Source of the DNA: an uncultured Solirubrobacterales bacterium
GTDB lineage: Bacteria; Actinomycetota; Thermoleophilia; Solirubrobacterales; Solirubrobacteraceae
Assembly (NCBI GenBank): GCA_963799995.1
Contig: CAWCZI010000012.1
Coordinates: 1,964,492 to 2,028,491 of the forward strand
Length of the DNA: 64,000 nucleotides
Direction of reading: 5' to 3'
A model generated the notes under the pieces. The model did not search any database and was not told the origin of the DNA. It saw only the letters and a list, made by a program, of their open reading frames with translations. The first letter of the stretch is position 1. Every line of letters begins with the position of its first letter. Position numbers and translations under genes: made by a program. Shown here in pieces: positions 6,807 through 45,537 of this stretch.

Positions 6807-7811
6807 TCAGCACGGGTTCCGACGAGCCCAGGCCAGGAAGTCGCGGGTTGCCTGCGGGGTACTGGCAAGCCGGCGTTCGCGCTGCTTGAGGGCGTGAGCG
6901 GTCTCCGAGCGGCTGAACACCCAGCCCAGCGTCTGAATCCGCCGCGCCATCAGGAACGTGGGCAGCTCGGCCGGCAACAGGTCGGGGAGCTCTCGAATCT
7001 GTCGGTAGCCGTCGACCAGGGCGTCCCGACGATCCCCCAGACTGCCAGTTCGGTCGTAGGGGTACAGGGCGACGGCGAACTCGTGCCCGTACCAGCTGTG
7101 TCCGCTGTCGTCGAAGTCGATGACGACGACCGCGCCGTCGTCGCAGACAAGGACGTTCTCGAACCCCAGGTCGCCGTGGATCAGCCCGAACCGATCCGGC
7201 CGTTCGCCGATCACATCCAGCCGCGCCCGGACCTCGGTCCGGCACGCCTCCAGCGCGGCCCGGTCATCCGCGGCGAACACGGAATGGGGGTCGGGCGGTC
7301 CCCACCGTGGATCGTCTCCCACCAGCGCCTCGGCGTCCCACGCGGGCCGCAAAAACCACGGGGGCGCCGCCCACGCGCGCGCGTGCGCGTGAATACGCGC
7401 CATTAATTCCCCCAGCCTCTCCCATGGCTTCACCTCGCTGACCGAACTCAGCGGTACGCCGTCGATCCACTCGAACAGCACCGCGGTGCGAGAGCAGCCC
7501 GGGCCGGCGGTCGCGGTCTGGAGCGGATCGCCATCGCATCCGGGCACCGCCGCGGCGGTCCGTACGCCGCTGCCCCGCAGGCTCTCCATCCACGCCAGCT
7601 CGGATCGAATCGCCGCGGCGGACTGGTATCCGGGCCGGTGAACGCGCAGGGCAAAGCGCCGTCCGTCCGGGGCGTGGATCCTGTACGTCGTGTTCTCGCC
7701 GTGGCGCACGAACGTGGCGCGGGCCTGTCCGCTGAACCCGAAGCGAGCCATCGCGTCGGCGACCAGAGCGGCCGGCAGCGGATCGCCGGCCACCTGGCCC
7801 GCCGACCTCAC
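6807..7811 (-). CDS. APH/choline-kinase-like phosphotransferase (amino-alcohol kinase type)
   Basis: ENTTYR, LRVHRPGY..AIRSELAWM, Brenner motif IHGDLGFENVL, IDFDDSG. GTGA overlap with the aminotransferase stop. Confidence 0.88.
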   Translation of the reverse strand: MRSAGQVAGDPLPAALVADAMARFGFSGQARATFVRHGENTTYRIHAPDGRRFALRVHRPGYQSAAAIRSELAWMESLRGSGVRTAAAVPGCDGDPLQTATAGPGCSRTAVLFEWIDGVPLSSVSEVKPWERLGELMARIHAHARAWAAPPWFLRPAWDAEALVGDDPRWGPPDPHSVFAADDRAALEACRTEVRARLDVIGERPDRFGLIHGDLGFENVLVCDDGAVVVIDFDDSGHSWYGHEFAVALYPYDRTGSLGDRRDALVDGYRQIRELPDLLPAELPTFLMARRIQTLGWVFSRSETAHALKQRERRLASTPQATRDFLAWARRNPC

Positions 7812-9115
7812 CGCGGGCTCTTGGCCCGCACGTGCCGGCTGGGGACGGGCCGGTCGACGTCCTTGGCGCGCTGCAGCGCGGCGTCGAGGCGCTCGAGCAC
7901 CGTGTCAGCGAGCGCATCCTCGAGCAGCAGGCCGGGCTTGAACTGCAGGACCGATTGGTCAAAGCCCGATGCGATCGCCCACACGCCGAGCTCGAACAGC
8001 TCCTGCTGCAGGTAGACGGCTCCGTCGGGGTGATCGACGCGCAGGCCGATCACGAGCCCGCTCTGGCGCACCTCGGTCAGGTACGGGTGGCGGTCGCGCA
8101 GCTCCGACAGGCCGCGGCCGACGTGCTCGATCAGGTGCGTGATCTGCGTCTGCACCGCGGGACGGGTCGTGATCTCCAGCACGCGCTCAGCAACCCGGCA
8201 GCCGATCTCGGCACCGCCGAAGGTCGAGACATGTCCCCAGCCGTTCTCGTGCAGCCACCCAGCGGCCCGCGCCGCGATCACCGTCGCCGCGATCGGATAC
8301 ATGCCGCCGGAGAGCCCCTTTGCGGTGACCAGGATGTCCGGCTGCACGCCGAAGGTCTCGACCCCCCACAAGCGCCCGGTGCGCCCCAGTCCCGTCTGCA
8401 CCTCATCGGCGATGTAGAGCGCCTCGTTCTCCTCGCACAGCGCCTTGACCGCGGGCAGATAACCGTCCGGCGGCACCGGGAAGCCATAGGTCGCCGGCAC
8501 CGTCTCTAGGAGCACCGCGGCCACGTCTCCCCTGGACATCTCGGCCGCGATCGCGTCGAGGTCGCCGAACGGCACCTTCGCGAACTGATCGGGCAGATCG
8601 GACAGGAAGTAGGCTGCCCCCGCGTCCTCGCCCGCGGCGCCCGAGAGTCCCGTGCGACCGTGGTATCCGGCGGCCAGCGTCACGATCCGCCGGCGCCCGG
8701 TCGCCCGCCGGGCGGTCTTGATGGCGACGTCGATCGCCTCGCTGCCCCCGGAGGCGAACACCGTGTACGCCAGGTCACCGGGGGTGAGCTCGGCCAGCCG
8801 GGCGGCCAGCTCGGCGCGAGCGGTGCTGGCGAAGTGGTGGTTTCCGATGTCCATCGTGGATGCGGCCGTGACCATCGCCTCCACAACCTCGGGGTTGCGA
8901 TGCCCGAGGTTGAAGGTGCCTCCGTTCAGGTGCAGGTCGATCAGCTCCCGGCCGTCGAGATCCCACAGCCGGTAGCCCTCGCGGCGGCCGATCACGAGCT
9001 GGGTGCCGAACGCCTCCCAGACGTCGACGCGGTGCGGGGCGACGTGCCGGCGGGTCAGCTCGAGCACGCGTTCCTTCTCGGATCCCCGGGCGCTCCCCGG
9101 GCCAGTGGAACTCAC
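7808..9115 (-). CDS. Class III PLP aminotransferase / putative phospho-lyase (AAU/RMM-like)
   Basis: HLNGGTFNLGHRNP, GGSEAID, YHGRTG, ETVPATYG, DEVQTGLGRTG, TAKGLSGG (PLP Lys), HVSTFGG. Confidence 0.9.
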   Translation of the reverse strand: MSSTGPGSARGSEKERVLELTRRHVAPHRVDVWEAFGTQLVIGRREGYRLWDLDGRELIDLHLNGGTFNLGHRNPEVVEAMVTAASTMDIGNHHFASTARAELAARLAELTPGDLAYTVFASGGSEAIDVAIKTARRATGRRRIVTLAAGYHGRTGLSGAAGEDAGAAYFLSDLPDQFAKVPFGDLDAIAAEMSRGDVAAVLLETVPATYGFPVPPDGYLPAVKALCEENEALYIADEVQTGLGRTGRLWGVETFGVQPDILVTAKGLSGGMYPIAATVIAARAAGWLHENGWGHVSTFGGAEIGCRVAERVLEITTRPAVQTQITHLIEHVGRGLSELRDRHPYLTEVRQSGLVIGLRVDHPDGAVYLQQELFELGVWAIASGFDQSVLQFKPGLLLEDALADTVLERLDAALQRAKDVDRPVPSRHVRAKSPR

Positions 9116-9885
9116 TCGTAGAACCCGTCCGGGGCCAACTTGAGCCGCTCGCGGTAGTCGAGATCGTGGGTGGCTATGAGCAGCGCGTCGTGCTCACGCT
9201 CGAGCGCCTCGATCCGCTCCCAGCTGGACACCATCGCATCCGGGCTCCACAGGACCGCCGGCAGCGCACGCTCGCGCATCTTGGCCAGCAGGTAGGTCGC
9301 GTCGGCGAGCAGGATGACCGTCTGTCCGCTGTCGAGCCTCACCATCAGCGACTGGTGCCCCCGGGAGTGACCGGGGGTGCTCAGCGCGACCAGGCGCCCG
9401 TCGCCGAAGATGTCGTGATCGCCGTCGAGCTGATGCCAGTCGAGCTCGTGCTCGAAGTCGGCGGCCACGTAGAGCAGGCGTTGGTACACCGGTGGCTGCC
9501 GCGCGAAGCTCAGCTCCTCGCGCTGCACCAGGACGGGTGCGTGGGTGAGCCACCCGAGGCCCCCGGCGTGGTCGAAGTGCAGGTGTGACTGGACCACGAT
9601 GTCGATGTCGGTGGGCTTCAGGCCGATGGTCGCCAGGCGCGCCTCGAGGTGGTCCTCGGAGCTCATCTGGACCTCGAACGACGCTGCCGCCGGCCCCAGC
9701 CGGGCCTCGGGATCGGTGCCCATCTGCGGGTGCACCCCGGTGTCGAACAGGACGTTGCCGCGCGGATGCGTGATGACGTACATGAAGTACGGGTTGTAGA
9801 CCTTCGTTCCCACGCGCTCGTCGAACGGGTCAAAGGCCGCCCAGTCCATCAGATCGCCGCCGCAGTGCAGCGCGTACAGCCTCAT
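9112..9885 (-). CDS. N-acyl-homoserine-lactonase-family metallo-beta-lactamase-fold hydrolase
   Basis: VLFDTG, SHLHFDHAGG (HxHxDH), TPGHSRGH, LADA; AiiA/AttM-like layout. Confidence 0.88.
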   Translation of the reverse strand: MRLYALHCGGDLMDWAAFDPFDERVGTKVYNPYFMYVITHPRGNVLFDTGVHPQMGTDPEARLGPAAASFEVQMSSEDHLEARLATIGLKPTDIDIVVQSHLHFDHAGGLGWLTHAPVLVQREELSFARQPPVYQRLLYVAADFEHELDWHQLDGDHDIFGDGRLVALSTPGHSRGHQSLMVRLDSGQTVILLADATYLLAKMRERALPAVLWSPDAMVSSWERIEALEREHDALLIATHDLDYRERLKLAPDGFYE

Positions 9886-11057
9886 CGTCGCACTCGCCCG
9901 CGGACCGCTTCGGCGGCGGCCTTCAGCGCCGAGCGCTCCGCGTCACTGAGGTTGAGCTCGACGATCTCGAGCACGCCGCCGCGACCCAGCACCGCGGGCA
10001 CCCCGAGGAACAGGTCCTCGATCCCGTATTCGCCCTGCAGATAGGCGGACACCGGGATCGCTCCGGCCTGGGCGCCGCGGATTGCCTGCAGCAGCTCGAT
10101 CGTCGCGTGGGCCGGCGCGACCGTGGCCGATCCAGTCCGGCGCAGGCTGACCACCGCGCCACCACCGGCGACGGTCTCACGGATGCACGCCTGGATTCGG
10201 TCAACGGGCAGCACGTCGACCAGCGGCCGGCCGCGGACGGTCGCGCCGGAGACGATCGGGACCATCTCGTCGCCGTGGCTGCCCAGCGTGATCGCCTCCA
10301 CGTCGAGCGGCTGGACCCCGGCGGCGGTGGCGATGGCGTTGCGAAAGCGGCTGGAGTCGAGCGTGGCGGCCATCCCGAGGACTCGCTCGGTGCCCAGCCC
10401 GCTCGCGCGCCACAGCTCATGGGTCATTTCGTCGAGAGGGTTGGTGACGACGATCACGACGGCGCTCGGGGCGAACTGCGCGATCGCCTCGCCGGCCCCT
10501 CTGATAACCGGGCCGTTGACCTGCATCATGGCGGCGCGATCCATGCCCGGGGTGCGGGGCCTGCCGGCGGTGACGACGACGACGTCGCAGCCTGCAATCA
10601 GGTCCAGCGTGGTTCCGCCGCGGGCCCGGGTCGGTGACCCGGTGATGCCCGACGCGTGCTCGATGTCGAGCGCGACCGACTCCGCGAGGCCGGGCACGAT
10701 GTCGATCAGGCAGATCTCATCCGCAAACCCGTCGATCGCGGCCAGATGAGCGGTGGTGGCCCCGACACCACCGGCGCCGATGAACCCCAGGCGCGTAAAG
10801 CGTGTGGGGGTCAGCCCGCGCGGCCTGTCGGATGCCACCCAGCGCGCGCCTCGGCGATACAGGCTGCGCCGGATCGCCCGGCCTGGATCCGCGCCGATCG
10901 GCGCCGGCTTCTCGAGCGGGCCGCGGACGATCTCCACGCCGAGGCGCTCGAGCGCATCGAGTGCCTGCGGCGTGACGATGTCGTCGTTGGCAACCACGAG
11001 CCGGCGCTGGCCGCGGCGAAATGCCTCGCGAACGTGCTCCTCGCCGACGACGTTCAT
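9882..11057 (-). CDS. mdh: LDH-like malate dehydrogenase with an N-terminal EutQ-N-like domain (about 85 extra aa)
   Basis: GAGGVG, LIDIV, TAGRPRTPGMDR (Arg at the malate-specificity position), VTNPLD, LDSSRF, GSHGD. N-terminus VREAFRRGQRRLVVANDDIVTPQALDALERLGVEI. Confidence 0.85.
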   Translation of the reverse strand: MNVVGEEHVREAFRRGQRRLVVANDDIVTPQALDALERLGVEIVRGPLEKPAPIGADPGRAIRRSLYRRGARWVASDRPRGLTPTRFTRLGFIGAGGVGATTAHLAAIDGFADEICLIDIVPGLAESVALDIEHASGITGSPTRARGGTTLDLIAGCDVVVVTAGRPRTPGMDRAAMMQVNGPVIRGAGEAIAQFAPSAVVIVVTNPLDEMTHELWRASGLGTERVLGMAATLDSSRFRNAIATAAGVQPLDVEAITLGSHGDEMVPIVSGATVRGRPLVDVLPVDRIQACIRETVAGGGAVVSLRRTGSATVAPAHATIELLQAIRGAQAGAIPVSAYLQGEYGIEDLFLGVPAVLGRGGVLEIVELNLSDAERSALKAAAEAVRGRVRR

Positions 11058-11665
11058 CAACGGCCTTCGAGGGCCTCCAGCGAGGACGCGGCGGTGTCGA
11101 TCGCCAGCCGTACGTCAGCTTCCGAGCCGGAGATGAACATCCGACCAAAGCGCCCCACGGTGCGCACCTCGACGATCTTGATCGTGGCCACCTTCTCGGC
11201 CTCGTTGGCCGCCGCGGCGATGTAGGCCGCGGGCCCGCACTCGAGAATCCCCAGGGTCTCGCCCGGCACGAGCAGCGATCCGCTGCGCCACTTGTTGAGC
11301 AGCTGCGCCTGGTAGGGCTCCACCGAGGTGATGATCTGGCTGGACTCGACGTTCGGGCGCCGGCGCTCGGTGAGGCTCATCCCGAGATGCGACAGGATCG
11401 CCTCGCGAGCGGCGCTCACCTCGGCGTTGGCGGGCGACCGCAGGATGAAGAAGCCAAATTCCCGCTCGACGATCTGCGAGGTCGCCTGGACGTCAGCCGC
11501 CTTCAGGGCGACGTCCACGACACGGAAGACCTCGTTGCCCGGACCGATCTCACCGACCAGGATGGTGTCGCCGGAGAGCGGAATCGAGCCCTGCACCGTG
11601 GCGCCGTTGTAGGCGGCGAACTGGGGCTGAAGCCGATCTATCTGCACCAGCGCGCGGAGGTCCAT
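11057..11665 (-). CDS. BMC shell protein, tandem-domain BMC-T (CcmP/CsoS1D-like double-stacking type)
   Basis: MDLRALVQIDRLQPQFAAY, EIGPG..VVDVALK, VEREFG, LECGPAAY...ANEAEK, GRFGRMFISGSEADV. Confidence 0.9.
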   Translation of the reverse strand: MDLRALVQIDRLQPQFAAYNGATVQGSIPLSGDTILVGEIGPGNEVFRVVDVALKAADVQATSQIVEREFGFFILRSPANAEVSAAREAILSHLGMSLTERRRPNVESSQIITSVEPYQAQLLNKWRSGSLLVPGETLGILECGPAAYIAAAANEAEKVATIKIVEVRTVGRFGRMFISGSEADVRLAIDTAASSLEALEGR

Positions 11666-11710: not shown

Positions 11711-13091
11711 CGAGGAGGTCGTTCAGCGACCGCCAGGGACGGGACTCGTAGGCGATCCGCTTGATGTTGATGAGATGAAGTGCGGTCACGTTGTCGGACA
11801 CGATCGATCCCGACCAGGTGCCGGTGCCGAGCATGAAGCTCGGGTCGATGTCACAGGAGAAGCCCATGCCGCCGTGCAGCGCCGGCGTGTTGACGAGCAC
11901 GCGGCCGGCAGGCAGGCGCGAGAATCGCGCCACGACGCTCGGATCGTCGGCGTGGACCACGGCGGTGTGGCCTTCGCCGCCGAAGCGCAGGACCTCGAGC
12001 GCCCGCTGCGCCCCCGCCTCGGCGTCGCCGACGTCGTAGAAGGCGAGGACCGGATCCAGCTTCTCGGCCGACAGGGGATCGCTGCGTCCCACGGTCTCGA
12101 GCTCCGCCAGCAGGACCCGCGTGCGGGGCGCCACATCGAAACCGGCCAGCTTGGCCAGGCGGGTCGCCGATTGCCCGACGTTCTCGACCTTCAAGCGAAG
12201 ATTGCGGTCGAACAGGACCTCCGCCAGGGACTCCGCCTGTCGCCTGGTGCACAGGTGGCCGCCCTGCTCGCGGATCGCGTGCCGCAGCCGCTCCGCGATC
12301 GGATGATCGGCGATCACGGCCTGCTCCGCGGCGCACGCCGTGCCGTAATCGAACGACTTGCTCGAGAGGATCATGTCCGCGACCTCGTCGAGGTCTCCCG
12401 CCTTGGAGCGATCGACGTAGACGGGAACGTTGCCGGGTCCGACCGCCAGCGTCGGCTTGCCCGAGGAGTAGGCCGCCCGCACCATCGCCGCGCCGCCGGT
12501 GGCCATCACCACGGCGATCCGGCGGTGGCTCATCAGCTCGCGCGTGCCGTCCAGGGTCGAGCCGTCCAGGCACTGGATCAGGCCCGGCGGCGCCCCCTCG
12601 TCCTCGGCGGCGTCGGCGAGGACGCGAGTTGTCTCGGCGCCGCAGTGGCGTCCCCGGGGATGCGGCGCGTGCACGATCGCGTTGCCGGCCTTCACCGCCG
12701 AGAGCGTCTTGAAGATGACGGTCGAGGTCGGATTGGTCACCGGGATCAGCGCGGCCACGACACCCATCGGCTCGCCGACCGCGATCACCTTGGTCGCCTC
12801 GTCGCGCCACAGCACGCCGAGGGTGCGGACGTTGCGCAACCAGTCCGACACCGCGATCGTGTTGAACAGGTTCTTGAGCGCTTTGTCGCCGGCGTTGCCG
12901 TACCCCGTCTCCTCAGCGGCGAGCTCGCCCAGGCGTGCCGCCTCGGGGGCGATCGCCCGCGCCATCGCCTCGACGACGCGATCGACGTCCGCCGGATCCC
13001 AGGTGCGGAACGTCAGCCAGGCCTCGTAGGCGCGGTCGGCCGCCCGCCGCGCCTGGGCGATCGAGTCCAGGTCGGGGTAGGCGAGCGTCAT
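11694..13091 (-). CDS. CoA-acylating aldehyde dehydrogenase (EutE/PduP/AdhE-N type), 465 aa
   Basis: Start MTLAYPDLD at 13091 (ATGA overlap). PVTNPTST, HAPHPRG, ATGGAAMVRAAYSSGKP, VGPGNVP, SKSFDYGTACAAEQ (catalytic Cys), EKLDPVL, GHTA. Confidence 0.92.
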   Translation of the reverse strand: MTLAYPDLDSIAQARRAADRAYEAWLTFRTWDPADVDRVVEAMARAIAPEAARLGELAAEETGYGNAGDKALKNLFNTIAVSDWLRNVRTLGVLWRDEATKVIAVGEPMGVVAALIPVTNPTSTVIFKTLSAVKAGNAIVHAPHPRGRHCGAETTRVLADAAEDEGAPPGLIQCLDGSTLDGTRELMSHRRIAVVMATGGAAMVRAAYSSGKPTLAVGPGNVPVYVDRSKAGDLDEVADMILSSKSFDYGTACAAEQAVIADHPIAERLRHAIREQGGHLCTRRQAESLAEVLFDRNLRLKVENVGQSATRLAKLAGFDVAPRTRVLLAELETVGRSDPLSAEKLDPVLAFYDVGDAEAGAQRALEVLRFGGEGHTAVVHADDPSVVARFSRLPAGRVLVNTPALHGGMGFSCDIDPSFMLGTGTWSGSIVSDNVTALHLINIKRIAYESRPWRSLNDLLDPEPS

Positions 13092-14190
13092 GCCAGCGCC
13101 TGCTCGAGCAGGGAGGCGTCGCCGCCGTCCAGGGCACGGCGGACGTCGTCGGGCCGGAAGCGGTCCAAACCAAGGCTCGGCAGGGTTCGCCCGTGCCGCG
13201 TGTAGTCGAGGCCTGCGAGGACCGAGCCGATATCGACGAGCGCAGCCGCGGTGCGAGTCGGGATGCCGGCCAGCGCGCCGGCGCTGATCGAGCGGCACCA
13301 GCGAGCAGCACAGCGCGTCGTGGACGCGGGGGTCGTCGCTCGCGAGCGCGGGACCGAGGTCCTCCTGCACCGGGGCCGGCGGGAGGTCGCGCACCCCGAA
13401 GGCAAACGCCACCCGGCGGCGCTCGTCGTCGATCCGCCGCGCGACCGACGCGAACTCGCGCAGCAGCGCCGGCGCGACGTCTCTGATTCCGGAGAGGTCC
13501 GAGAAGCTGGTCTCGAGCACACCGCGAGCGGGGATGAGCATCGGCAGCAGGGCCCGCAGCCGCTGCACCGCGTCCTCGGTGGCGCGGTTGGGCAGCGCCG
13601 CCGCGGGCACCTCCGCGCTCACGGCCGCGAGCGTGAGCGCACCCGGTTCAGAGGACTCGACCCGGTAGGGCGAAGCCGCCAGCTCGACGATCGTCGGAAG
13701 GTCCGGCGCAGGCGAAACGGCGCAGCGAGCGGGCGACCTCGACGGCCCCGAACGAGCGTCCTGGGACCAGCACCAGGAGCTGCTCGGGCCGCAGCCGGCC
13801 CGCCAGCAGGCCGCCGCAGGTGGCGTGGGCGATGCCGGGAGTCGCGACCAGGATCGCGTCGGCTTCGGTCACGGCGTCGTCGATCCCGGTTCTCAGGCCG
13901 ATCGCCGGCTGGGCGGATGGGCCGTCGGCCAGCCGGTAGGTGCCGACCAGATGCTCGCCCCGCACGGTCACCGCCCGCGGCGCGGCCAGCGCCGCGCGCT
14001 CGGGCTCGAATGCCGTGTGAAGCGTCACTTCGCACTCGGCCGCCAGACACTCGCAGGCCAGGGCCTGGCCCACCGGTCCGGCTCCCAGCACGGCGACGCG
14101 GCGCAGCGGGCGGCGCTCGGGCACCCCGGCCGCCGGCTTGACCTCGTTGAGGTCGGCCAGCAGCGCTTCGAATTCGCCGGCAGAGGTCAT
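13088..14190 (-). CDS. Opine (octopine/nopaline) dehydrogenase-like protein, frameshifted at about 13710 and 13291, apparently catalytically divergent
   Basis: Three frame segments: Rossmann VAVLGAGPVG...ADAILVATP...LVPGRSFGA; then PTIVELAASPY...LETSF...IDDERRRVA; then LVP..ISAGALAGIPT...GRTLPSLGL. This is the opine-DH domain order. Alternative start at 14211. Confidence 0.72.
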
Positions 14191-14215
14191 CCTCGCCGCC
14201 GACCGGGCCATGCGG

Positions 14216-14512: not shown

Positions 14513-14820
14513 TTGCTCCTTGTCTTGGTGGGCTGTTTGCGGCTCGACGTGCCGGCGTGCAGGTTGACGGCATCGACGATCGCGACGATCGTCAGGTCGG
14601 TGGCGGCCGCGCGCGACTGCGGCGGCTGCCGGGCCGCCGACCCGCGCGTGATCAGCACCTGATCACCGGGCCCGGCACCGACCGTGTCAACGGCGACCTC
14701 GGCCGGTCTGGCATCAGAACCGGCCGGGTCCAGCGGCTGGACGATCAACAGCTTGTGCGAGAGCAGGCTCTCGGTCTTCGCGGTCGCGGTCACCGAGCCG
14801 AGCACTTGCGCGAGCTCCAT
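14509..14820 (-). CDS. BMC vertex pentamer protein (BMC-P, EutN/CcmL family) with a basic C-terminal tail
   Basis: [48 protein letters not shown]. Confidence 0.95.
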
Positions 14821-14872
14821 CAGTGGCGCCCCGGGTGGCGGTTATGCTCGGCTATTTCCGCAATCATGGACG

Positions 14873-14889
14873 TTCGTGTACCGTATACA
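14873..14889. promoter_or_regulatory. Candidate GntR operator in the divergent BMC/oxidase promoter region
   Basis: Its reverse complement TGTATACGGTACACGAA is 15/17 identical to 19986-20002. Confidence 0.6.
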
Positions 14890-14918
14890 GTGACCCGAGG
14901 GAATGCAAGGGCCGGGCA

Positions 14919-14970
14919 CCGGGAGGACAGCTGATGGCCGGGACCCGGGAGGAGAGCTGATGGCCGGGAC
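14919..14970 (+). repeat. 26-nt tandem duplication of RBS plus start codon
   Basis: ccgggagga(c/g)agctgatggccgggac x2. The first copy encodes MAGTREES*, whose TGA overlaps the real ATG (TGATG). Confidence 0.85.
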
Positions 14971-16105
14971 GAGCGATGCGGTCGTGATCGGAGCCGGCAT
15001 CGCCGGAGCCTCGGCGGCGCTCGCGCTGCGCAGGCGTGGGCTCGACGTCACGCTGATCGATGCACGGGAGCCCGGACACGCGCGCGCAGCCTCCGCCGGA
15101 GATCACCGCATCCTGCGCGCCAGCCACGGGTCGGATCAGCTGTACACCCGCTGGAGCCGGGAGGCGCGTCTGCGCTGGATGGAGCTCGGAGCCGAGGTCG
15201 GCCAGGAGCTGTTCGTCCAGAGCGGAGCGGTCATGCTCGCCAAGGCCGGACACACGCAATGGGAGGACGCCTCCCGCGACACCCTCGCCCGGCTGGGGGT
15301 TCCGAGCTTCGTGGTCGACGTGGACGAGCTGCGCCTGCGCCTGCCGCTGATCGACCCGCGCGGCCTGGCGTACGGCCTGTGGGAGCCCGAATCCGGATTC
15401 GTGTACGCGCGGCGAGCCGTCCAGGCGACGGTCCGGCTGTTCGTCGAGATGGGCGGGGTTCTGCGGCGCGGCGTGGGCGGCACCGACGAGCGTGAGCGTC
15501 CCCTGGTCGACGGCCGGCCGATCGAAGCGGGCGTCATCGTCTTCGCCTGCGGCGCCTGGATGGGCCGGCTCTTTCGCCGCACCCTGGGGCAGCTGCTCGA
15601 CATCGTCCGCCAGGATGTGATGATGGTCGAGCCACCACCCGGGGCGACCGGCTATGACGCCGACAGCTTCCCGGCCTGGATCGATCATGGGTATCCCGCC
15701 TACGGGATACCGGCGTCCGGCGGCTACGGCTTCAAGGCGGTGCTCAACTGGCGCGGCATCACGCTCGACATAGACCGCGATGACCGCTTGATCTCCCCCA
15801 CGTCGGTGGCCCGCACGCGGCGCTATCTGGCTCATCGCTTTCCCGCGCTGGCCAACGCGCCGATCGTCGGCCAGGAGGTGGGCCAGATCGCCAACACCAC
15901 CGACACCCACTTCCTGATCGACCACCACCCCGCGCACGACCGCCTCGTGCTCGTGGCCGGCGACTCGGGACACCTGTTCAAGCATGGTCCCGTGGTCGGT
16001 GACCACATCGCCGCGCTCGCGCTTAACGAGATCGACCCCGAGCCGCGTTTCAGCCTCGGCAAGCGCCCCGCCGTGGCGGTCACGTCGGCCGACCGCCCGC
16101 AGTAG
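14960..16105 (+). CDS. FAD-dependent amine oxidoreductase (monomeric sarcosine oxidase/DAAO family), 381 aa
   Basis: AVVIGAGIAG, ASAGDHRILR, FACGAW, TTDTHFLIDHHP, AGDSGHLFKHGPVVG. Confidence 0.88.
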   Translation: MAGTSDAVVIGAGIAGASAALALRRRGLDVTLIDAREPGHARAASAGDHRILRASHGSDQLYTRWSREARLRWMELGAEVGQELFVQSGAVMLAKAGHTQWEDASRDTLARLGVPSFVVDVDELRLRLPLIDPRGLAYGLWEPESGFVYARRAVQATVRLFVEMGGVLRRGVGGTDERERPLVDGRPIEAGVIVFACGAWMGRLFRRTLGQLLDIVRQDVMMVEPPPGATGYDADSFPAWIDHGYPAYGIPASGGYGFKAVLNWRGITLDIDRDDRLISPTSVARTRRYLAHRFPALANAPIVGQEVGQIANTTDTHFLIDHHPAHDRLVLVAGDSGHLFKHGPVVGDHIAALALNEIDPEPRFSLGKRPAVAVTSADRPQ

Positions 16106-16121
16106 AGGACGATCGGTCCGC

Positions 16122-16941: not shown

Positions 16942-18351
16942 TCAGAACTGAAACGGGCGGTCGATGCCGGCCAGCGAGACGCCGGTGAATGCCGACGCTT
17001 CGAGCGTCAGCGCGCGGAGGTCCTCGGGCTCGAGGTTGTGCACCGATGACTTGCCGCACGCCTTGGCCAGCAGCGTGGCCTCCATCGTCATCGCGGTCAG
17101 CAGACGCAAGGTTCGCTCCGCGCCGGCCTCGACATCCATCCGCTCCTCGAGCTCGGGGTCCTGGGTGGTGATCCCGACCGGGCAGCGACCGGTATGGCAG
17201 TGATGACAGGAGCCGGGAGCGGTCCCGAGGGCGGCGTAGTCGTCGACGTAGCGCGGCGAATTACAACCGAGCCCGATCAGCGCCGCGGTCGCGATCATCG
17301 CGCAGTCGGCGCCGAGGGCGAGCGCCTTGGCGACGTCGACCCCGGAGCGGATGCCGCCGGAGACGACGAGCTTCACCTTGTCGGCCATCCCGCAGTCCTC
17401 GAGCGCGCGGCGCGCGGCGGGGATTGCGGAGATCAACGGCACCCCGGTGTGGTCCAGCAGCATCTCGGGCGAGGCGCCGGTCGAGCCCTCCATCCCGTCG
17501 AGCACGATCACGTCGGCACCGGTCTTGGCCGCCACCGCCACGTCGTAGTAGGGACGCGTCGCCCCGAGCTTGATGAAGATCGGGACGCGGTAGCCGGTGG
17601 CGTCGCGCAGCTCCTCGATCTTGATCTGCAGATCGTCGGCGCCGAGGAAGTCTGGATGGCGGACGGTCGCTCGCTGGTCCACTCCGAGCGGAAGCGAGCG
17701 CATGCGGGCGACTCGCTCGGAGACCTTCATGCCCAGCAGCAGCCCGCCGGTACCGGGCTTGGCGCCCTGCCCCACCACGACCTCGATCCCGTCGGCGCGG
17801 CGCAGATGGTCGAGGTCGAGCATGTAGCGCGACGGGGTCAGCTGGTACACGAGCGTCTGCGACTCCGCGCGCTCGTCCTCGAGCATGCCGCCCTCGCCCG
17901 TGCAGGTCATCGTGCCGGCCCGCGAGGCACCCCGGCCGAGCGCGGCCTTGGCGCTCGCCGACAGCGCGCCGAAGCTCATCGACGCGATGTAGATCGGGAT
18001 CTCGAGCTCGATCGGCTCCTCCACCAGTCCCAGCCCATCTCCCAGAACCGTTTTCGTGTCGCATTTCTCGCGGTAGCCCTCCAGCGGCAGCCGCGTCATC
18101 GTCGCCGGCTGGAAGACGAGATCGTCGAAGCTGGGCAGCTGGCGCTGGAAGGTGGAGAAGCCGCGGATCTGATAGCGCCCGAGCTGTGCCTTGGCGTGAA
18201 TGTCGGCGATCGCCGCCGGCGTCCACCGCGACGAGCCGCCGCGGGTGTAGGACCGGGCCACCCCCGCCGGCCGGCCGGCCTGCGCTCCGTCGGAGAACGC
18301 CGCCGGGTCCTCTTCGGGGTGGCCGTTGGCGCCGTTCAGATCATCAGCCAT
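16942..18351 (-). CDS. glxD: FMN-binding glutamate synthase-family subunit (GlxD / N-methylglutamate synthase MgsC-like)
   Basis: MSFGALS, TGEGG, GQGAKPGTGG, DGMEGSTGA, SGGIRSGVDVAKALALGAD, CHHCHTGRCPVGITTQDP. Start at MADDLNG. Confidence 0.85.
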   Translation of the reverse strand: MADDLNGANGHPEEDPAAFSDGAQAGRPAGVARSYTRGGSSRWTPAAIADIHAKAQLGRYQIRGFSTFQRQLPSFDDLVFQPATMTRLPLEGYREKCDTKTVLGDGLGLVEEPIELEIPIYIASMSFGALSASAKAALGRGASRAGTMTCTGEGGMLEDERAESQTLVYQLTPSRYMLDLDHLRRADGIEVVVGQGAKPGTGGLLLGMKVSERVARMRSLPLGVDQRATVRHPDFLGADDLQIKIEELRDATGYRVPIFIKLGATRPYYDVAVAAKTGADVIVLDGMEGSTGASPEMLLDHTGVPLISAIPAARRALEDCGMADKVKLVVSGGIRSGVDVAKALALGADCAMIATAALIGLGCNSPRYVDDYAALGTAPGSCHHCHTGRCPVGITTQDPELEERMDVEAGAERTLRLLTAMTMEATLLAKACGKSSVHNLEPEDLRALTLEASAFTGVSLAGIDRPFQF

Positions 18352-19016
18352 TGCTGCGCATCCCTTGACTCGAAGTGCCACAGCGCCTGCGCGGAGACGA
18401 TGCGCTGCCACGTCTGCCCCTCATCGCCGATGCCGAGGCCGGCGAGCAGCGCCCACACCTCCGCGACCTCGTCGGCCGGCGGCTCCTCGATCCGTGCGTC
18501 GACACCGAGACCGCCGATCGTGCCGGCGACCCAGATCTCCCCCTCCCACAGCGAGTCACCCGCGGCATCGGCGGTGTCACCGAGGCAGATCACCCGCCCC
18601 CCGTGGGCCATGAAGCCGCAGGCATGGCCGAGCGAGCCCTCGACCACGATCACCCCGCCCTTCATCGCCACGCCGCAGCGCGGACCGGCGTTGCCGCGCA
18701 CGTGGATCGTGCCTCCGCGGATCGACGCGCCGACGCTCATCGCGGCGTTGCCCTGCACGGTGATGTGCCCGCTGGCCATCGCCTCCCCGACGCCCCAGCC
18801 GGCATTGCGGGTGATCGTGATGCCGGCACCGTTGTTGAGGCCGCCGCAGTAATAGCCCACCGAGCCTTCGAACGTCACCTCGCCCCCTGGCGGCAACGCA
18901 ACGCCGAGATTGTGACGTGAGAGCGGCTCGGTCACGCGCACGTGCTCGCCGGCGGCGACGGCCGCCCGGATCTCCTCGTTGACCTCCCGCAGGGGACGAT
19001 CCCCGGCTCGGATCAC
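18336..19016 (-). CDS. glxC: GXGXG-domain subunit (GlxC / MgsB-like)
   Basis: Repeated GxxxG beta-helix (GSVGYYCGG, GNAGPRCG, GFMAHGG); flanked by glxB and glxD homologues. Confidence 0.85.
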   Translation of the reverse strand: MIRAGDRPLREVNEEIRAAVAAGEHVRVTEPLSRHNLGVALPPGGEVTFEGSVGYYCGGLNNGAGITITRNAGWGVGEAMASGHITVQGNAAMSVGASIRGGTIHVRGNAGPRCGVAMKGGVIVVEGSLGHACGFMAHGGRVICLGDTADAAGDSLWEGEIWVAGTIGGLGVDARIEEPPADEVAEVWALLAGLGIGDEGQTWQRIVSAQALWHFESRDAQQWLMI

Positions 19017-19963
19017 GCGGCCGCCCCCACCGCCACCGGCGAGCGGACGGACCAGATGCGAACGATCGACGGACCGTCGTGGACCTCTACGTCGACCTCG
19101 TCGACGTAGAGCGTGCGCAGCGCCTGCTCCTCGGTGGCGACGGCGACGCCATCGGGTCCGATCACCGCGACGACCGGCTTGATCGCCCAGCGATCCTTGG
19201 CCAGTGCGATCCCGTCGGGGGTGGCCAGCAGATATGTGAAGACGCCGTCGAGCTCGCTCAGGCTGCGCTCGAGCGACTCCTGAAGCGAATCGCCGGCCGC
19301 CATCCGCACCGAGTTCCAGACCGCGATCAGCTCGCTGTCGTTCTCGGTCGTGAAGCGGTATCCCTGCCGCTGCAGGCGCCGCCGCCAGGTGTAGTAATTG
19401 GTCAGCTGCCCGTTGTGGACGATCGCCACGTCGGGAAACGGCCGCGCCCAGAACGGATGGCCCGCGACCGGTGACACATTCGACTCCGTGGCCAGACGAA
19501 CGTGACCGAGGCCATGCGTCCCGATGAACTCCTCCACCCCGTGCTTGGATGCCACCTCGCCGGCGTCGCCGACGTCCTTGACGATCTCCAACGCGCGCCC
19601 GGCCGACTGAAGCTCGACCCGGTCAAGCGCGTCGCAGGCGTCGACCCAGGCTGAGAACGGCTTGGGATCGGAGACCACGAGCCTCGCCAGCACATGCCGT
19701 TGGCCGCTCTGGTCCCAGGTCGGCTCCTGCACGAAGTCCGCGCCGTGCTCGCGAGTGACGCCGCGCAGAGCCTCGAGATCCTGATCCAGGTGACCGCGGT
19801 CGGCAAGGAGCGCGCGCACGACGAACGCATCCTCGCGCGGCGTTCCATACAGCGCGAACCCAGTGCTGTCCCACCCCCGGTGACGCTGCGCGGCCATCAT
19901 CGCCGTCAGGTCGGCGCCGAGACGGCCCGGCTCATTCAGCGTCCGGCCTGCGATCCCGCACAT
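19013..19963 (-). CDS. glxB: Class II glutamine amidotransferase subunit (GlxB / MgsA-like)
   Basis: N-terminal MCGIAG, HRGWDSTG, GHVRLATES, HPF, VHNGQLTNY, NDSELI. Confidence 0.87.
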   Translation of the reverse strand: MCGIAGRTLNEPGRLGADLTAMMAAQRHRGWDSTGFALYGTPREDAFVVRALLADRGHLDQDLEALRGVTREHGADFVQEPTWDQSGQRHVLARLVVSDPKPFSAWVDACDALDRVELQSAGRALEIVKDVGDAGEVASKHGVEEFIGTHGLGHVRLATESNVSPVAGHPFWARPFPDVAIVHNGQLTNYYTWRRRLQRQGYRFTTENDSELIAVWNSVRMAAGDSLQESLERSLSELDGVFTYLLATPDGIALAKDRWAIKPVVAVIGPDGVAVATEEQALRTLYVDEVDVEVHDGPSIVRIWSVRSPVAVGAAA

Positions 19964-20049: not shown

Positions 20050-20763
20050 CTAGGCGGCTCTTGATGCCCGGCGGCGCCGGGCCGTGCCGGCGCTGGGCGA
20101 CTTGGCCGCCGCGCCCTTCACGGTGCGCTCGAGGCCCCACGCGATGTGCTCGATCATCGCGCGGCGAGCGCGCACCGGATCACCGGCGGCGATCTCCTTG
20201 ATCAGCGCCTCGTGCTCGGCCACGAACGCGTCGTGCGGCGAGTGAACGTAGAAATCGTGGTACGCGAGAGCGCTGATGGCCCGGCCCCAGATCGCGTCGA
20301 AGAAGTTGAGCAGGTACGAGTTGCCGGTTGCCTGCACGATTGACCGGTGAACCGAGCGGTTGGCTTCGAACGACTCCCGGGTGGACCGCAGCTTTCTCGC
20401 GGTGGCCGCCGCGAGCGCGTCCCTCACCTGCGCCAGCGCGTTCGGACCGAGCTCAGCGACGATCGCGGCGGCGTGGCCCTCGACCGCGTCTCGCGCCCCG
20501 TAGAGATCGCGCACGTCTGAGTCCGACAGGCTGCGCACGACGTATCCGCGGCGTCCTGAAGGCTCCACCACGCCCTCTTCCTTGAGCCGCAGAAGAGCGT
20601 CGCGCACCGGCGTCCGGCTGACGTCGAGCTCTTCGGCCAGGCGGTCCTGGATCAGCCGATCGCCGGGATTGACCGTCCCCTGCACCAGCGCCTCGACGAG
20701 CCGGTCATAGACCTCGCTCGCGAGCCGGGAGTGCGAGCGGTCGATGCGCTGGATTGCTGCCAT
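20050..20763 (-). CDS. GntR/FadR-family transcriptional regulator
   Basis: LDVSRTPVRDALLRL wHTH; FCD domain NRSVH...EHEAL. Confidence 0.93.
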   Translation of the reverse strand: MAAIQRIDRSHSRLASEVYDRLVEALVQGTVNPGDRLIQDRLAEELDVSRTPVRDALLRLKEEGVVEPSGRRGYVVRSLSDSDVRDLYGARDAVEGHAAAIVAELGPNALAQVRDALAAATARKLRSTRESFEANRSVHRSIVQATGNSYLLNFFDAIWGRAISALAYHDFYVHSPHDAFVAEHEALIKEIAAGDPVRARRAMIEHIAWGLERTVKGAAAKSPSAGTARRRRASRAA

Positions 20764-20772
20764 GGTCGCAGT

Positions 20773-21225
20773 CTAAAGACCTTCACCATCAATGGACGGA
20801 GTTCGATATCCGGTAATCGCGTCCACCTCCACCTCCACCATCAGCCCCGGAGTCGCCAGCTGCGCCCCGACGACGGTCAGCACCGGAGCCGCGTCTCCGA
20901 GCGCCTCGCGGTGAGCCCGCGCGAACGCGGCGGCGTCGGCCATGTCAACCAGGTAGGCGCGGGTGCGGACCACGTCGCTCAGGCTCGCGCCCACGGCTCG
21001 CAACGCCGCATCGATGCGCTGCAGGGTGAAGCGGGACTGGGCGGCCGTGTCGCCCGGCTGATGGACGCGCCCTGACCGCTCGACGGCGGTCGTGCCGGCC
21101 ACATAGACGAACGGGCCGACCCGCTTGGCGCGGACATATCCGGCGAGCTCCTCGAAGCGGCCGCCGTCACGGTGCTCGGCGCTCTCCCAGCCCTCCGCGG
21201 CTCCCATCCCCTCGACAGCCTCCAT
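20773..21225 (-). CDS. RidA/YjgF-family protein
   Basis: GYVRAKRVGPFVYVAGTT, DVVRTRAY, VEVEVDA. Start at MEAVEG. Confidence 0.85.
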   Translation of the reverse strand: MEAVEGMGAAEGWESAEHRDGGRFEELAGYVRAKRVGPFVYVAGTTAVERSGRVHQPGDTAAQSRFTLQRIDAALRAVGASLSDVVRTRAYLVDMADAAAFARAHREALGDAAPVLTVVGAQLATPGLMVEVEVDAITGYRTPSIDGEGL

Positions 21226-21249
21226 CGTCTCACCTCGTATGCGGTGTTT

Positions 21250-21266
21250 CGCGTTCCGTACACGAT
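21250..21266. promoter_or_regulatory. Weaker copy of the candidate operator upstream of ridA-gntR
   Basis: CGCGTTCCGTACACGAT, 13/17 identical to 19986-20002. Confidence 0.4.
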
Positions 21267-21292
21267 AGCTCCGGGCGCGGGCGCCCGGGGGG

Positions 21293-22389
21293 TTAGTAGA
21301 CGATGACGCTGCGGGCTGTCTCCCCCGCCTGCATGCGCGCGAACGCATCGTTGACTTCGTCCAGCCCGCAGGTGGTGATAAGGGGTGCGAGGCGCAGCCG
21401 GCCGTCGCGGTAGAGGTCGACGAGGAGGGGGATGTCGCGCAGCGGCACGCAGGAGCCATACCAGGAGCCGCGCACGCACCTTTCCTCCAGGGTGGTCGTC
21501 AGCGCGTCCAGTGCCACCCGGGTCTCGGGTGAGGCCATACCGATCAGAACCGCCTGGCCGCCGCGGCTGGTCAGCGCCACCGCGGTGTCGATCGTGTCCG
21601 GACGTCCCAGCGCCTCGAAGGCGTGGTCGACGCCACCTCCGAGCAGCTCGGTGACGGCCTCGACGGGGTCGCACTCGGCGGCGTTCACGACCGCGGTCGC
21701 GCCCAGCTCGCGAGCCAGCTCGAGCTTGGCGGCGACGACGTCGACCGCCACGATCGTGCTCGCGCCCGCGATCCGTGCCCCCTGCACGACGTTGAGGCCG
21801 ACACCCCCGCACCCGACCACCGCCACGGAGTCGCCGGGGCGCACGTGCGCGGTGTTGATGGCCGCTCCCACCCCGGTCATGACGGCGCAGCCCATCAACG
21901 CGAGCTCGGTCAGCGGAAGGCCGGGATCGACCTTCACCGCCGTCCGCGCCGGCACCACCGAGCACTCGGCGAACGAGGACGTGTTGTAGTGATGAACCGG
22001 CTCCCCGTCACGGCTGAAAGCGGCACGTCCCGTCCTCCATCGTCGCGTCGTACCAGGCCGTGTTCTCGCAGATGTTCGGCCGCCCGCGCGCGCATTGGCG
22101 GCAGTGCCCGCAGTAGGGAAGCCAGGTCAGCAGGACATGGTCGCCCGGACGCAGGCCGACCACGCCCGGACCGACCTGCTCCACCACGCCCGCTCCCTCG
22201 TGGCCGAGGACGACCGGGAGCGAGGTCGGATGGATCGCCCTGGGCGACGTGAAGGTCGGAGTGGCAGACGCCGCTGGCCGCCATGCGAATCAGCACCTCG
22301 CCCGTCTTGGGCGGATCGAGCTCGAGGTCCTCGATCACGAGCGGCTGCCCGAATTCGTGCAGGACGGCGGCCCGTATCGGCGTCGACAT
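21293..22389 (-). CDS. Zn-dependent alcohol dehydrogenase (class III/aryl-alcohol type), two +1 frameshifts (about 22238 and 22019)
   Basis: ASGVCHSDLH, then (shifted) GHEGAG...CGHCRQC...C, then GCAVMTGVG, GCGGVG, GSWYG. The net frame change matches two single-base insertions. Confidence 0.85.
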
Positions 22390-44197: not shown

Positions 44198-45537
44198 CCT
44201 CGCGGTAGCGGTCGCGTTCGAAGTCGGTGACGTGTCGCGCGAACAGCTCGAGTTCGTGCCGAAGCATGACGACGTAGACGTCCACGAACAGGTCGCCGTA
44301 CGCGTCGCGGATGAAGCGGCTGTGCTCGAGTGCGGGCAGCGCCTCCTCGAGGTTGGTGGGCAGACGCGTGAGCGACGCATCGACGTGAGGGTCACCGGTC
44401 ACGATCGGCGGCACCTCGAGATCGCGCTCGAGCCCGTCGGCCCCGGCAGCGAGACAGCCGGCGACGACGAGGTACGGGTTGGCATCGGCCGATGCCCAGC
44501 GGCACTCGAGCCTCGTCGCGGCACCGCGGCCGACGGCTGAGCGCACGCCGACGAGCCGGTGGTCGAGCCCCCAGCTCACCTGCGTCGGGGAGAACGAATA
44601 GTCCTCGACGCGCTTGTACGAGTTGATCGTGGGGCAGTTGACCGCCTGCAGCTCGACCTGATGCTCAAGGAGCCCGGAGAGGTAGCGGCGCATCAGCTTC
44701 GAGCGCAGCGGGGGATCGTCGTCCTCCTCGCGCAAAGGCGTTGCGGCCGTCGGCACCGAGGAGGCTCTGGTGGATGTGCAGCCCGTTCCCCGCCTCGGTG
44801 ATGTAGGGCTTCGGCATGAACGTGGCCCGGAGGCCGTGCGCCGACGCGACCTGTTTGACGACGTACTTGAGCAGGATCGTCGCGTCCACGATCTCGATCG
44901 GCGACCCGTGACCGAGGTTGACCTCGACCTGCGCGGGCCCGTACTCGACGTTCCAGGCTTCGACCTCGATGCCGGAGCCCTCGAGGATCCGCTTGATCTC
45001 GGTGACCACGGGCTCGACCTCGGCGCCCTTCTGCATCGAGTAGCAGTGCGTCCCGGTGTACAGCGGCTCCCAGTTGGGATGACACAGGTGGAACTCGAGC
45101 TCGGTCGCGGCGACCGGCTCATAGCCGTGGCCCCGGACCCTCTCCACAGCTCGGCGCAGGATCGCGCGGCCGTCCATCGGGATGGGCTCGTCCGTGATCG
45201 GGTCGATCGTGTCGCAGATGCAGAAGGCGGTCCCGTCTCGCCAGGCGGCCCGGCGCAGGGTGGAGACGTCCGGGACCACGTGCATGTCCGGGTATCCGGT
45301 CACGTCGTTGACGAAGGCGGTCGGGAAGATCACGCCGTGCATGTCCCAGGTAAAGGCGACGTTCGCGATCGCGAAGCCGTCGCCGCCGGCACAGGAGCAG
45401 AAGTGCTTGGTGGCGAGCCGCTTTCCCCGGGGAATGCCCCACGTGTCGGCGAACATGCATTCGACCGTGTGGATCTGCTCCCGGTCGAGGAACTCCCGGA
45501 CAGACTCGATATCGGCTGCGGCTTCGGTCACGTTCAT
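44190..45537 (-). CDS. Glutamine synthetase-like gamma-glutamylamide ligase, frameshifted at about 44732
   Basis: RGKRL, ELEFHL, EYGPAQVEVN, MPKP, GNGLHIHQSL; then in a second frame NSYKR, WGLDHR, RLECR..ADANPY. Confidence 0.88.

Follow-up and report, generated by a model that had tools for sequence, protein, structure and literature searches.

How does a metabolosome whose operon encodes no alcohol dehydrogenase regenerate the NAD+ that its aldehyde dehydrogenase (AldDH) requires? The question is raised by a bacterial microcompartment (BMC) operon on a 64,000-nucleotide stretch of DNA from an uncultured Solirubrobacterales bacterium (GenBank assembly GCA_963799995.1, contig CAWCZI010000012.1, positions 1,964,492 to 2,028,491), referred to here as the window; positions are counted from its first letter. 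One gene of this operon encodes a malate dehydrogenase (MDH) with an N-terminal extension, and a first-pass annotation of the window had proposed that the extension is a EutQ-like domain that targets the enzyme to the shell or cargo, where reduction of oxaloacetate would balance the NADH made by AldDH. On balance, we favor an explanation along these lines, in which the gene product would be the cargo MDH of a MIC2-type BMC, held by a EutQ-type anchor and recycling NAD+ by means of oxaloacetate. The evidence is of unequal strength for the homology of the extension, its role as an anchor, and the reaction that it would serve, and each is therefore taken separately.

The extension very probably contains a EutQ-type domain

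The extension is 88 aa long and has three parts: a domain (residues 2-45), a linker (residues 46-56) whose sequence varies among homologues, and a second conserved motif (residues 57-75). To compare the extension with EutQ, a profile of 68 extensions was aligned by hhalign with a profile of 13 EutQ N-termini, the E. coli EutQ reference being taken from the annotated K-12 record. Residues 2-54 aligned with EutQ 2-55 at a probability of 96.5% (E = 7.7e-10, score 53.5), far above the controls, in which the best score was 18.5 among 100 column-shuffled profiles and 11 for the reversed profile. The EutQ profile is shallow (13 sequences, Neff ~1.4) because the best 120 matches to E. coli EutQ were enterobacterial EutQs only. 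BLASTP of the extension against E. coli EutQ aligned residues 9-45 with EutQ 10-47 (37% identity over 38 aa, E = 1e-4), and the NCBIfam EutQ model NF012001 was matched at positions 5-54 of 233 (E = 1.2e-3). The AlphaFold2 (AF2) model predicts a beta-alpha-beta-alpha-beta fold for residues 2-45 (strand contacts 3-4, helix 6-14, strand 19-22, helix 30-39, strand 42-45), with a per-residue confidence (pLDDT) of 83-91 within the full model and 91.4 when the domain is modeled alone, and its two helices fall at the positions aligned to helices H1 and H2 of EutQ. Overall, these comparisons make it very probable that residues 2-45 share their ancestry with the H1/H2 region at the N-terminus of EutQ. 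The resemblance to EutQ seen at first pass is thereby upheld as homology, whereas its extent is revised: the extension has 88 residues rather than about 85, and the match covers residues 2-54.

Judged by its domains, the fusion protein is not itself a EutQ and shares only the EutQ N-terminal module. The homologous part of EutQ is the non-cupin N-terminus, the EutQ cupin beginning near residue 100, and a search of the fusion protein for a EutQ cupin gave no match to PF06249, PF05899, or PF07883 even at E ≤ 1. When the isolated N-domain was compared with the PDB by Foldseek, no match reached significance (best E = 0.09) and no ligand-binding fold appeared, and we have therefore assigned no fold to the domain; we know of no solved structure of the EutQ N-terminus. 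When the 89-aa extension was used by itself as a query against 5.8 billion proteins, two fragments only were returned, by a word index that is insensitive to so short a domain. The fragment P0002, considered as a possible stand-alone copy of the domain, looks like a frameshifted gene call and was set aside. Separately, residues 5-91 of E. coli EutQ match positions 2-88 of NF007991, a model for a variant of the EutA reactivase (E = 1.5e-9), which suggests that some EutA proteins may carry the whole EutQ N-terminal region.

The dehydrogenase domain

Beyond the extension, the sequence points to an MDH, though to a divergent, dedicated paralogue. Pfam places Ldh_1_N at residues 91-229 (111.4 bits, cutoff 27) and Ldh_1_C at residues 233-385 (97.6 bits, cutoff 22.6), a Pfam scan of residues 1-90 finds no family, and the NCBIfam subfamily model NF004863 is passed (316 bits, cutoff 283). 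The nearest solved structure is the MDH of Chloroflexus aurantiacus (1uxi/4cl3; E = 7e-73, ~43% identity), on which the AF2 model (mean pLDDT 88.8) superimposes with a TM score of 0.92, normalized by target length, and a root mean square deviation of 1.8 Å (4cl3); a Foldseek search with the full model matched only MDH and lactate dehydrogenase (LDH) structures.

The catalytic and specificity residues are in place. Within AGRPRTPGMDR (residues 164-174), R168 corresponds to LDH position 102 and R174 to R109; in LDSSR (residues 233-237), D234 corresponds to D168 and R237 to R171; and in GSHG (residues 259-262), H261 corresponds to H195. All five equivalents are invariant in 68 non-redundant homologues and align with the Chloroflexus MDH. 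The GxGxxG motif and D119 are likewise invariant across the 68, and D119 is the Asp that in this fold favors NAD over NADP. An Arg at LDH position 102 selects oxaloacetate, a dicarboxylate, over pyruvate. The motifs from which an intact LDH-like MDH had been recognized at first pass are thus all present. In this family the active-site loop (residues 165-174; window 10536-10565) reads G-R-P-R-[T/S]-P-G-M-x-R, and the altered positions, Arg 100 and Thr/Ser 103, could tune the substrate preference of the MDH.

The operon is of the MIC2 type

We compared gene order in the window with that around a Thermocrispum orthologue and at related loci fetched from 80 species genomes (soil and marine Actinomycetota, Alphaproteobacteria, and Gammaproteobacteria), where the flank sufficed. 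Culturable carriers of the locus include Thermocrispum agreste DSM 44070, Ruegeria profundi, Hoeflea poritis, and Sulfitobacter sediminilitoris. The core order BMC-P, BMC-H, opine-dehydrogenase-like (OctDH-like), AldDH, BMC-T, MDH is found in the window and in nearly all 80 loci, MDH being the last gene of the BMC core and always lying within the BMC operon; in four Acidimicrobiia loci (L039, L057, L059, and L080) the OctDH-like gene stands downstream of MDH instead. Relative to MDH, the DAO-type gene lies at about -6.4 kb (on the opposite strand), a glutamine-synthetase-like gene at -5.1 kb, BMC-P at -3.9 kb, BMC-H at -3.5 kb, OctDH-like at -3.2 kb, AldDH at -2.0 kb, and BMC-T at -0.62 kb, a position (about -620 nt) that BMC-T occupies in all related loci whose flank is long enough.

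The published MIC2 set consists of AldDH, a pfam02866 MDH, a 6PGDH-like protein, glutamine synthetase, and a minimal H/P/T(dp) shell (Sutter 2021, PMC8217296). The same survey knew two actinobacterial MIC2 loci and recorded, in its Supplementary Data 2, a EutQ-like extension of ~70 aa on the MIC2 MDH, so that the fusion is not new (Sutter 2021, PMC8217296). The window holds AldDH, a pfam02866 MDH with the extension, and the 6PGDH-like protein (here frameshifted) in one locus. The pfam00120 glutamine synthetase is missing from it: the glutamine-synthetase-like gene that precedes BMC-P in L007 and nearly all other loci is absent from the window (14820-16120) and from L004-L006, and the nearest such match in the window has 35% identity and lies ~35 kb off, near position 44700. 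From its gene content and order, we assign the locus to the MIC2-type BMCs. An assignment to RMM1, considered on account of the APH-family kinase and the class-III aminotransferase, was rejected because the shell and the core gene order are those of MIC2; the RMM-like genes are an add-on of Solirubrobacterales loci only.

Consistent with the first-pass annotation, there is no Fe- or Zn-type alcohol dehydrogenase among the annotated operon genes. That annotation overlooked, however, a second NAD(P)-type dehydrogenase, the opine-dehydrogenase-like gene, whose product is equally available as a recycler or as an NADH producer. Its N-terminus resembles an encapsulation peptide (SAGEFEALLADLNEV, followed by a Pro/Gly linker). 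For the AldDH of MIC2, no encapsulation peptide is reported (Sutter 2021, PMC8217296). Comparison with an intact 373-aa orthologue in L004 (80-89% identity for each segment) shows that two frameshifts, near codons 167 and 307, divide the opine-dehydrogenase-like gene of the window among three reading frames; the gene is either a pseudogene or a victim of assembly indels. As a result of these frameshifts, the list of open reading frames (ORFs) places the start of AldDH too far upstream, at 13622; the gene really begins with the ATG at 13091.

The EutQ-type domain as a likely shell anchor

What such a domain might do is indicated by experiments published in 2025 on the Salmonella Eut BMC. There, residues 1-99 of EutQ suffice to target green fluorescent protein (GFP) to the organelle, and deletion of residues 9-99 uncouples the shell from the cargo; the shell-binding helices are H1/H2, which recognize the EutM/EutL interface, and the partners of H3/H4 (residues 63-99) are the EutC and EutE encapsulation peptides (PMC12487888). 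Binding to a BMC-H/BMC-T shell and targeting of a reporter are known for Salmonella EutQ only (PMC12487888). The MDH extension matches exactly H1/H2, the shell-binding part, and this homology gives good support, by inference, to anchoring of MDH at the shell. By analogy with EutQ, association of MDH with the BMC through the EutQ-type domain is likely. To that extent, the earlier proposal that the extension targets MDH to shell or cargo stands, as an argument from the GFP targeting by EutQ 1-99 and the shell binding by H1/H2.

A proposed malate/oxaloacetate redox shuttle for NAD+ recycling

We propose that the EutQ-type domain would be a folded targeting module that replaces the classical amphipathic encapsulation peptide and docks MDH on the lumenal side of the shell, close to or at the BMC-H/BMC-T interfaces, as for EutQ. 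In the lumen, MDH would reduce oxaloacetate to malate and so re-oxidize the NADH that comes from the acylating AldDH and possibly also from the opine-dehydrogenase-like enzyme. Malate would leave and oxaloacetate would enter through the shell, and the cycle would constitute a malate/oxaloacetate redox shuttle. The MDH equilibrium strongly favors oxaloacetate reduction. The basis of the recycling step is the conserved specificity residues and the logic of the operon, which make it plausible, and we place NAD+ recycling by oxaloacetate reduction a little short of an even chance. LDH/MDH-family proteins were earlier proposed as NAD+ recyclers for the PVM and MIC1 BMCs (Axen 2014, PMC4207490), and a 2024 paper lists MIC2 among the BMC types whose mode of NAD+ regeneration is still to be determined (PMC11626177). 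We found no paper on the function of MIC2.

Several points weigh against this account. Concerning the reaction, the MDH equivalog model TIGR01763 gives a score of 282, below its cutoff of 351.85; an additional Arg, invariant in the family, occupies LDH position 100 of the active-site loop, where a Thr/Ser also replaces the canonical Lys103; and oxaloacetate is assigned as the substrate from residues alone. Concerning the location, the match is limited to the H1/H2 region of EutQ, and shell anchoring of the MIC2 MDH is drawn from experiments with Salmonella EutQ. The shell partners differ, EutL being a BMC-T(sp) protein and the MIC2 locus encoding a BMC-T(dp) protein, and MDH may sit inside or outside the shell. 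Concerning the need for a shuttle, the opine-dehydrogenase-like enzyme could be the NAD+ recycler instead, and NAD(H) might cross the shell directly through the BMC-T(dp) pores.

These points bear on a rival explanation in which MDH is likewise encapsulated via its EutQ-type domain but serves as a pathway enzyme, NAD+ being supplied by the opine-dehydrogenase-like enzyme or by exchange through BMC-T(dp). MDH might then oxidize malate, with formation of NADH, and supply the resulting oxaloacetate to the opine-dehydrogenase-like enzyme as its keto-acid co-substrate; it might use a different 2-oxo or 2-hydroxy dicarboxylate; or it might be an aldehyde reductase, the role proposed for PvmO of the PVM BMC. 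Opine dehydrogenases are generally known to use 2-oxo acids, and another NAD(P) oxidoreductase, whose N-terminus resembles an encapsulation peptide, is indeed conserved in the same operon; the sub-cutoff equivalog score and the GRPR[TS]PGM loop would also suit a substrate other than oxaloacetate. Further, an aldehyde/alcohol pair was the predicted substrate of the LDH/MDH-family protein of PVM (Axen 2014, PMC4207490). However, the classical signature of an oxaloacetate enzyme, Arg 102 with R109, R171, and H195, is invariant in the family, the textbook equilibrium favors the reductive direction, and AldDH would still require a sink for its NADH. We consider a pathway role rather unlikely, although it is the main rival.

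The module is found on many BMC enzymes

The distribution of the module bears on the anchor itself. We searched 1.84 billion representative proteins with a profile hidden Markov model (HMM) built from 26 MDH extensions and 6 EutQ N-termini, and obtained 1,301 proteins at E ≤ 1e-3, 57 of them at E ≤ 1e-10. Among the top 150 matches, the module is N-terminal, C-terminal, or present in two to three tandem copies. A Pfam scan of 96 top matches counted as partner domains the EutQ cupin (17), Ldh_1_N (15), RpiB (4), Flavoprotein PF02441 (3), PTA_PTB (2), and, once each, PduL (with the module C-terminal), AldDH, and a PduO-type adenosyltransferase. RpiB is listed as a signature enzyme of SPU-type BMCs (Sutter 2021, PMC8217296). 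Those proteins with a C-terminal module that were checked showed a weak match to TIGR02536 ("ethanolamine utilization protein"), below the curated cutoff. The profile search and the partner domains therefore agree with the earlier remark that other BMC-associated proteins share the pattern.

In an enterobacterial eut operon (L084, 8001-9284), the EutQ N-terminal module (eutQ') is fused directly to the EutD phosphotransacetylase (P0261), and no separate eutQ or eutT gene was called between eutP and eutM. This PTA fusion was considered as an independent example of cargo but is probably the product of a eutQ'-'eutD deletion and was not counted, and the list of partners is therefore not composed entirely of independent evidence, a further point against the anchor.

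It has been suggested in print that the extension is possibly ligand-binding (Sutter 2021), and a compact folded unit, as predicted by the model, would be compatible with this. Yet the homology lies with the non-cupin N-terminus of EutQ (positions 5-54 of the 233 in the model), that region binds the shell (PMC12487888), and Foldseek shows no ligand-binding fold. Because the module occurs on many unrelated BMC enzymes, also in tandem copies, an anchor or scaffold fits better than a metabolite sensor; as far as sequences can tell, the distribution fits BMC association far better than substrate-specific regulation. A ligand-binding role is, in our view, improbable. More tentatively, and with the balance of probability against the combined claim, we suggest that the ~45-aa H1/H2-like domain could be a general, portable, folded shell anchor, which in MIC2 would hold MDH at the shell for the malate/oxaloacetate shuttle.

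A second conserved motif precedes the dehydrogenase

Residues 57-75 follow the pattern D-P-x-R-A-x-x-R-x-L-Y-R-R-x-P-R-W, with no variation at R64, L66, and W73 and almost none at D57, R68, and R69. The motif is basic and is modeled, with low confidence (pLDDT 54-65), as a short amphipathic helix at 58-66, and EutQ contains nothing that corresponds to it. Its role could be to bind, in trans, the shell, other cargo, or a neighboring MDH subunit. The last possibility underlies another rival, namely that the extension serves chiefly for MDH oligomerization, like the N-terminal arm of vertebrate LDH, and that its association with BMCs is incidental. Residues 57-85 immediately precede the first Rossmann strand, the site of the LDH arm, and combine high conservation with low pLDDT in the monomer (54-65), as would a segment that binds in trans. 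An arm would, however, explain at most motif 57-75 and not the EutQ-like domain, and the extension is confined to BMC-encoded paralogues; we regard this rival as very improbable.

The extension is part of the gene

The ORF list gives a minus-strand ORF at 9882-11060 that opens with TTG. All MDH homologues start with M-[NSP]-V-V/I-G/S-E, and the true start is therefore the ATG at 11057. This ATG shares one base with the TGA stop codon of the upstream BMC-T gene (TGATG), an overlap that is the usual sign of translational coupling of MDH to BMC-T. In-frame ATG, GTG, or TTG codons ahead of residue 110 occur at positions 1, 2, 22, 42, and 75 only, with no start codon near residue 89, and the G+C content at third codon positions (GC3) over codons 1-90 is 0.83-0.90, equal to that of the remainder of the gene.

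A total of 505 encoded relatives of this MDH were detected, the nearest being from metagenome-assembled genomes of Solirubrobacterales/Solirubrobacteraceae (82-88% amino-acid identity). The extension is kept in 118 full-length homologues (cluster representatives, 56-88% overall identity) from Actinomycetota, Alphaproteobacteria, and Gammaproteobacteria, and its own identity across phyla is 40-76%, with invariant residues. At the DNA level, tblastn matches open at residue 1-3 in ~79 of the 80 species genome loci, the exception to a full extension being L080, which is cut by a contig end. The conserved extension and the tblastn matches exclude a downstream start, which was also rejected on the positions of the start codons and the N-termini of the homologues; as the first-pass annotation required, no homologue in this set begins downstream of the extension. 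The idea that the extension is an annotation artefact, an unexpressed in-frame stretch ahead of translation from near residue 89, is accordingly given practically no chance, because no plausible start lies there, GC3 is of the coding type throughout, the extension is conserved across phyla from its first residues, and the overlap with the BMC-T stop codon leaves no intergenic gap.

Neighboring genes

The coordinates of the MDH features and of the neighboring genes are collected in Table 1. The Thermocrispum orthologue of the BMC-T protein carries CsoS1D_N. The MBL-fold, class-III aminotransferase, and APH-family genes that follow MDH are found in the window and in the Solirubrobacterales loci L004-L007 only, and in none of the other ~75 loci. 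The best PDB relative of the APH-family kinase is 6ef6 (E = 1.3e-44), which we take to be the aminopropanol kinase of the Mycobacterium smegmatis RMM1 BMC. On this basis, the aldehyde in the Solirubrobacterales lineage may be formed by way of an amino-alcohol kinase and a phospholyase, and the gene set looks like an RMM1-type module grafted onto a MIC2 core. Genes of the type used in amine catabolism by gamma-glutamylation or via N-alkylglutamate lie around the core (the MgsABC-like GATase/GXGXG/Glu_synthase trio, the PuuB- or Mgd-like DAO-type oxidase, and the PuuD-like peptidase C26) and hint that the MIC2 aldehyde may come from a gamma-glutamylated amine; we found no literature tying MIC2 to an N-methylglutamate or gamma-glutamylation pathway, or to Rhodobacterales. 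Upstream lie a gene for a GntR regulator (20050-20763) and a RidA-like gene (20773-21459).

Table 1. Positions in the window of the MDH fusion gene, its parts, and the surrounding genes
Feature	Position	Strand	Remarks
MDH fusion coding sequence	9882..11057	-	391 aa + stop; start ATG 11057
EutQ-N-like domain, residues 2-45	10923..11054	-	hhalign, shuffle control, NF012001, AF2 pLDDT 91
Pro-rich linker, residues 46-56 (GPLEKPAPIGA)	10890..10922	-	alignment; pLDDT ~70-76
Second conserved motif, residues 57-75 (DPGRAIRRSLYRRGARWVA)	10833..10889	-	alignment, AF2 model
LDH-like malate dehydrogenase catalytic domain, residues 89-389	9891..10793	-	Pfam, NCBIfam, PDB
R168 codon (LDH/MDH position 102)	10554..10556	-	Arg invariant in 68 homologues
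BMC-T shell protein, 202 aa, double-BMC, CsoS1D-like	11057..11665	-	directly upstream of MDH
BMC-type AldDH, 465 aa	11694..13091	-	start set by relatives
Opine-dehydrogenase/6PGDH-like NAD(P) oxidoreductase	13088..14211	-	two frameshifts
BMC-H shell protein, 98 aa	14216..14512	-	
BMC-P (EutN/CcmL) vertex protein, 103 aa	14509..14820	-	
DAO-type FAD oxidoreductase (PuuB- or Mgd-like)	14903..16105	+	divergent
Alpha/beta hydrolase	between Glu_synthase trio and DAO-type gene	-	
GATase/GXGXG/Glu_synthase trio (MgsABC-like)	16942..19963	-	
MBL-fold hydrolase, class-III aminotransferase, APH-family kinase	6807..9885	-	directly after MDH
Second AldDH	after APH-family kinase	-	
PuuD-like peptidase C26	3704..4717	-	last in listed order, after second AldDH

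Discussion

MIC2 is a widespread BMC type. Because the fusion is already in the literature, the value of the present analysis is in consolidation and in testable hypotheses rather than in discovery; what goes beyond Sutter 2021 is the link to shell binding by EutQ H1/H2 (the 2025 experiments) and the occurrence of the module in ~1,300 protein clusters (the profile search). If MDH is the recycler, reducing power would exit the organelle as malate, which would give bacteria an equivalent of the malate shuttle of mitochondria, and a simple assay would follow, in which oxaloacetate drives the turnover of AldDH in isolated BMCs. Such a shuttle would answer the question of NAD+ regeneration in metabolosomes that have neither an alcohol dehydrogenase nor the MNdh/BMC-T(SE) system. 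A compact folded domain that anchors diverse enzymes would also be a useful targeting tag for engineered microcompartments.

Compared with a tetrameric LDH-like MDH such as that of Chloroflexus aurantiacus (4cl3/1uxi), the fusion protein is alike in fold, catalytic and specificity residues, and NAD-binding motif. It differs from canonical LDH-like MDHs in its 88-aa N-terminal extension, in the loop sequence of its family (GRPR[TS]PGM rather than G(A/V/I)PRKPGM), and in the setting of its gene, which belongs to a BMC operon and is not a housekeeping gene of the tricarboxylic acid cycle.

The closest known systems are the MIC2 (and MIC1) LDH/MDH proteins of Sutter 2021, which share the enzyme set of AldDH, MDH, and 6PGDH-like/opine-dehydrogenase-like protein; the MIC2 protein shares the EutQ-homologous N-terminal extension, which is found in a BMC context only. 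The proteobacterial MIC2-like loci that we fetched have the same gene order. In contrast to the MIC2 of Sutter 2021, the window copy comes from a Solirubrobacterales-like actinobacterium, lacks the adjacent glutamine-synthetase gene, has a frameshifted opine-dehydrogenase-like gene, and carries an RMM1-like module after MDH; the extension, given there as ~70 aa, is resolved here into 88 aa comprising the 45-aa H1/H2-like domain followed by the second motif.

PvmO of the PVM BMC (Erbilgin 2014, as described in Axen 2014, PMC4207490) is likewise an LDH/MDH-superfamily enzyme in a locus that, in that description, is without a classical alcohol dehydrogenase, and it was likewise proposed to regenerate NAD+ for AldDH. 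According to the same description, its proposed substrate is an aldehyde (lactaldehyde) and not oxaloacetate, and in the Sutter HMM table it belongs to the group HMM02866_1_pvmeut, whereas the MIC1/2 proteins form HMM02866_2_mic12.

With the N-terminus of Salmonella and E. coli EutQ, the extension shares profile homology over ~50 residues, the same predicted helix-strand-helix order, and a position at the extreme N-terminus of a BMC-associated enzyme, ahead of a flexible Pro/Ala-rich linker. The C-terminal partner is MDH instead of the cupin acetate kinase, and the cargo-peptide-binding region of EutQ (H3/H4) has no detectable counterpart in the MDH extension. Finally, the extension would resemble the encapsulation peptides of PduP, PduD, EutC, and EutE in being an N-terminal, linker-connected element that brings cargo into a BMC. 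Those classical peptides are single amphipathic helices of 15-20 aa, whereas MDH has a folded domain of ~45 aa, and, unlike a cargo peptide, the EutQ version of this domain binds the shell itself.

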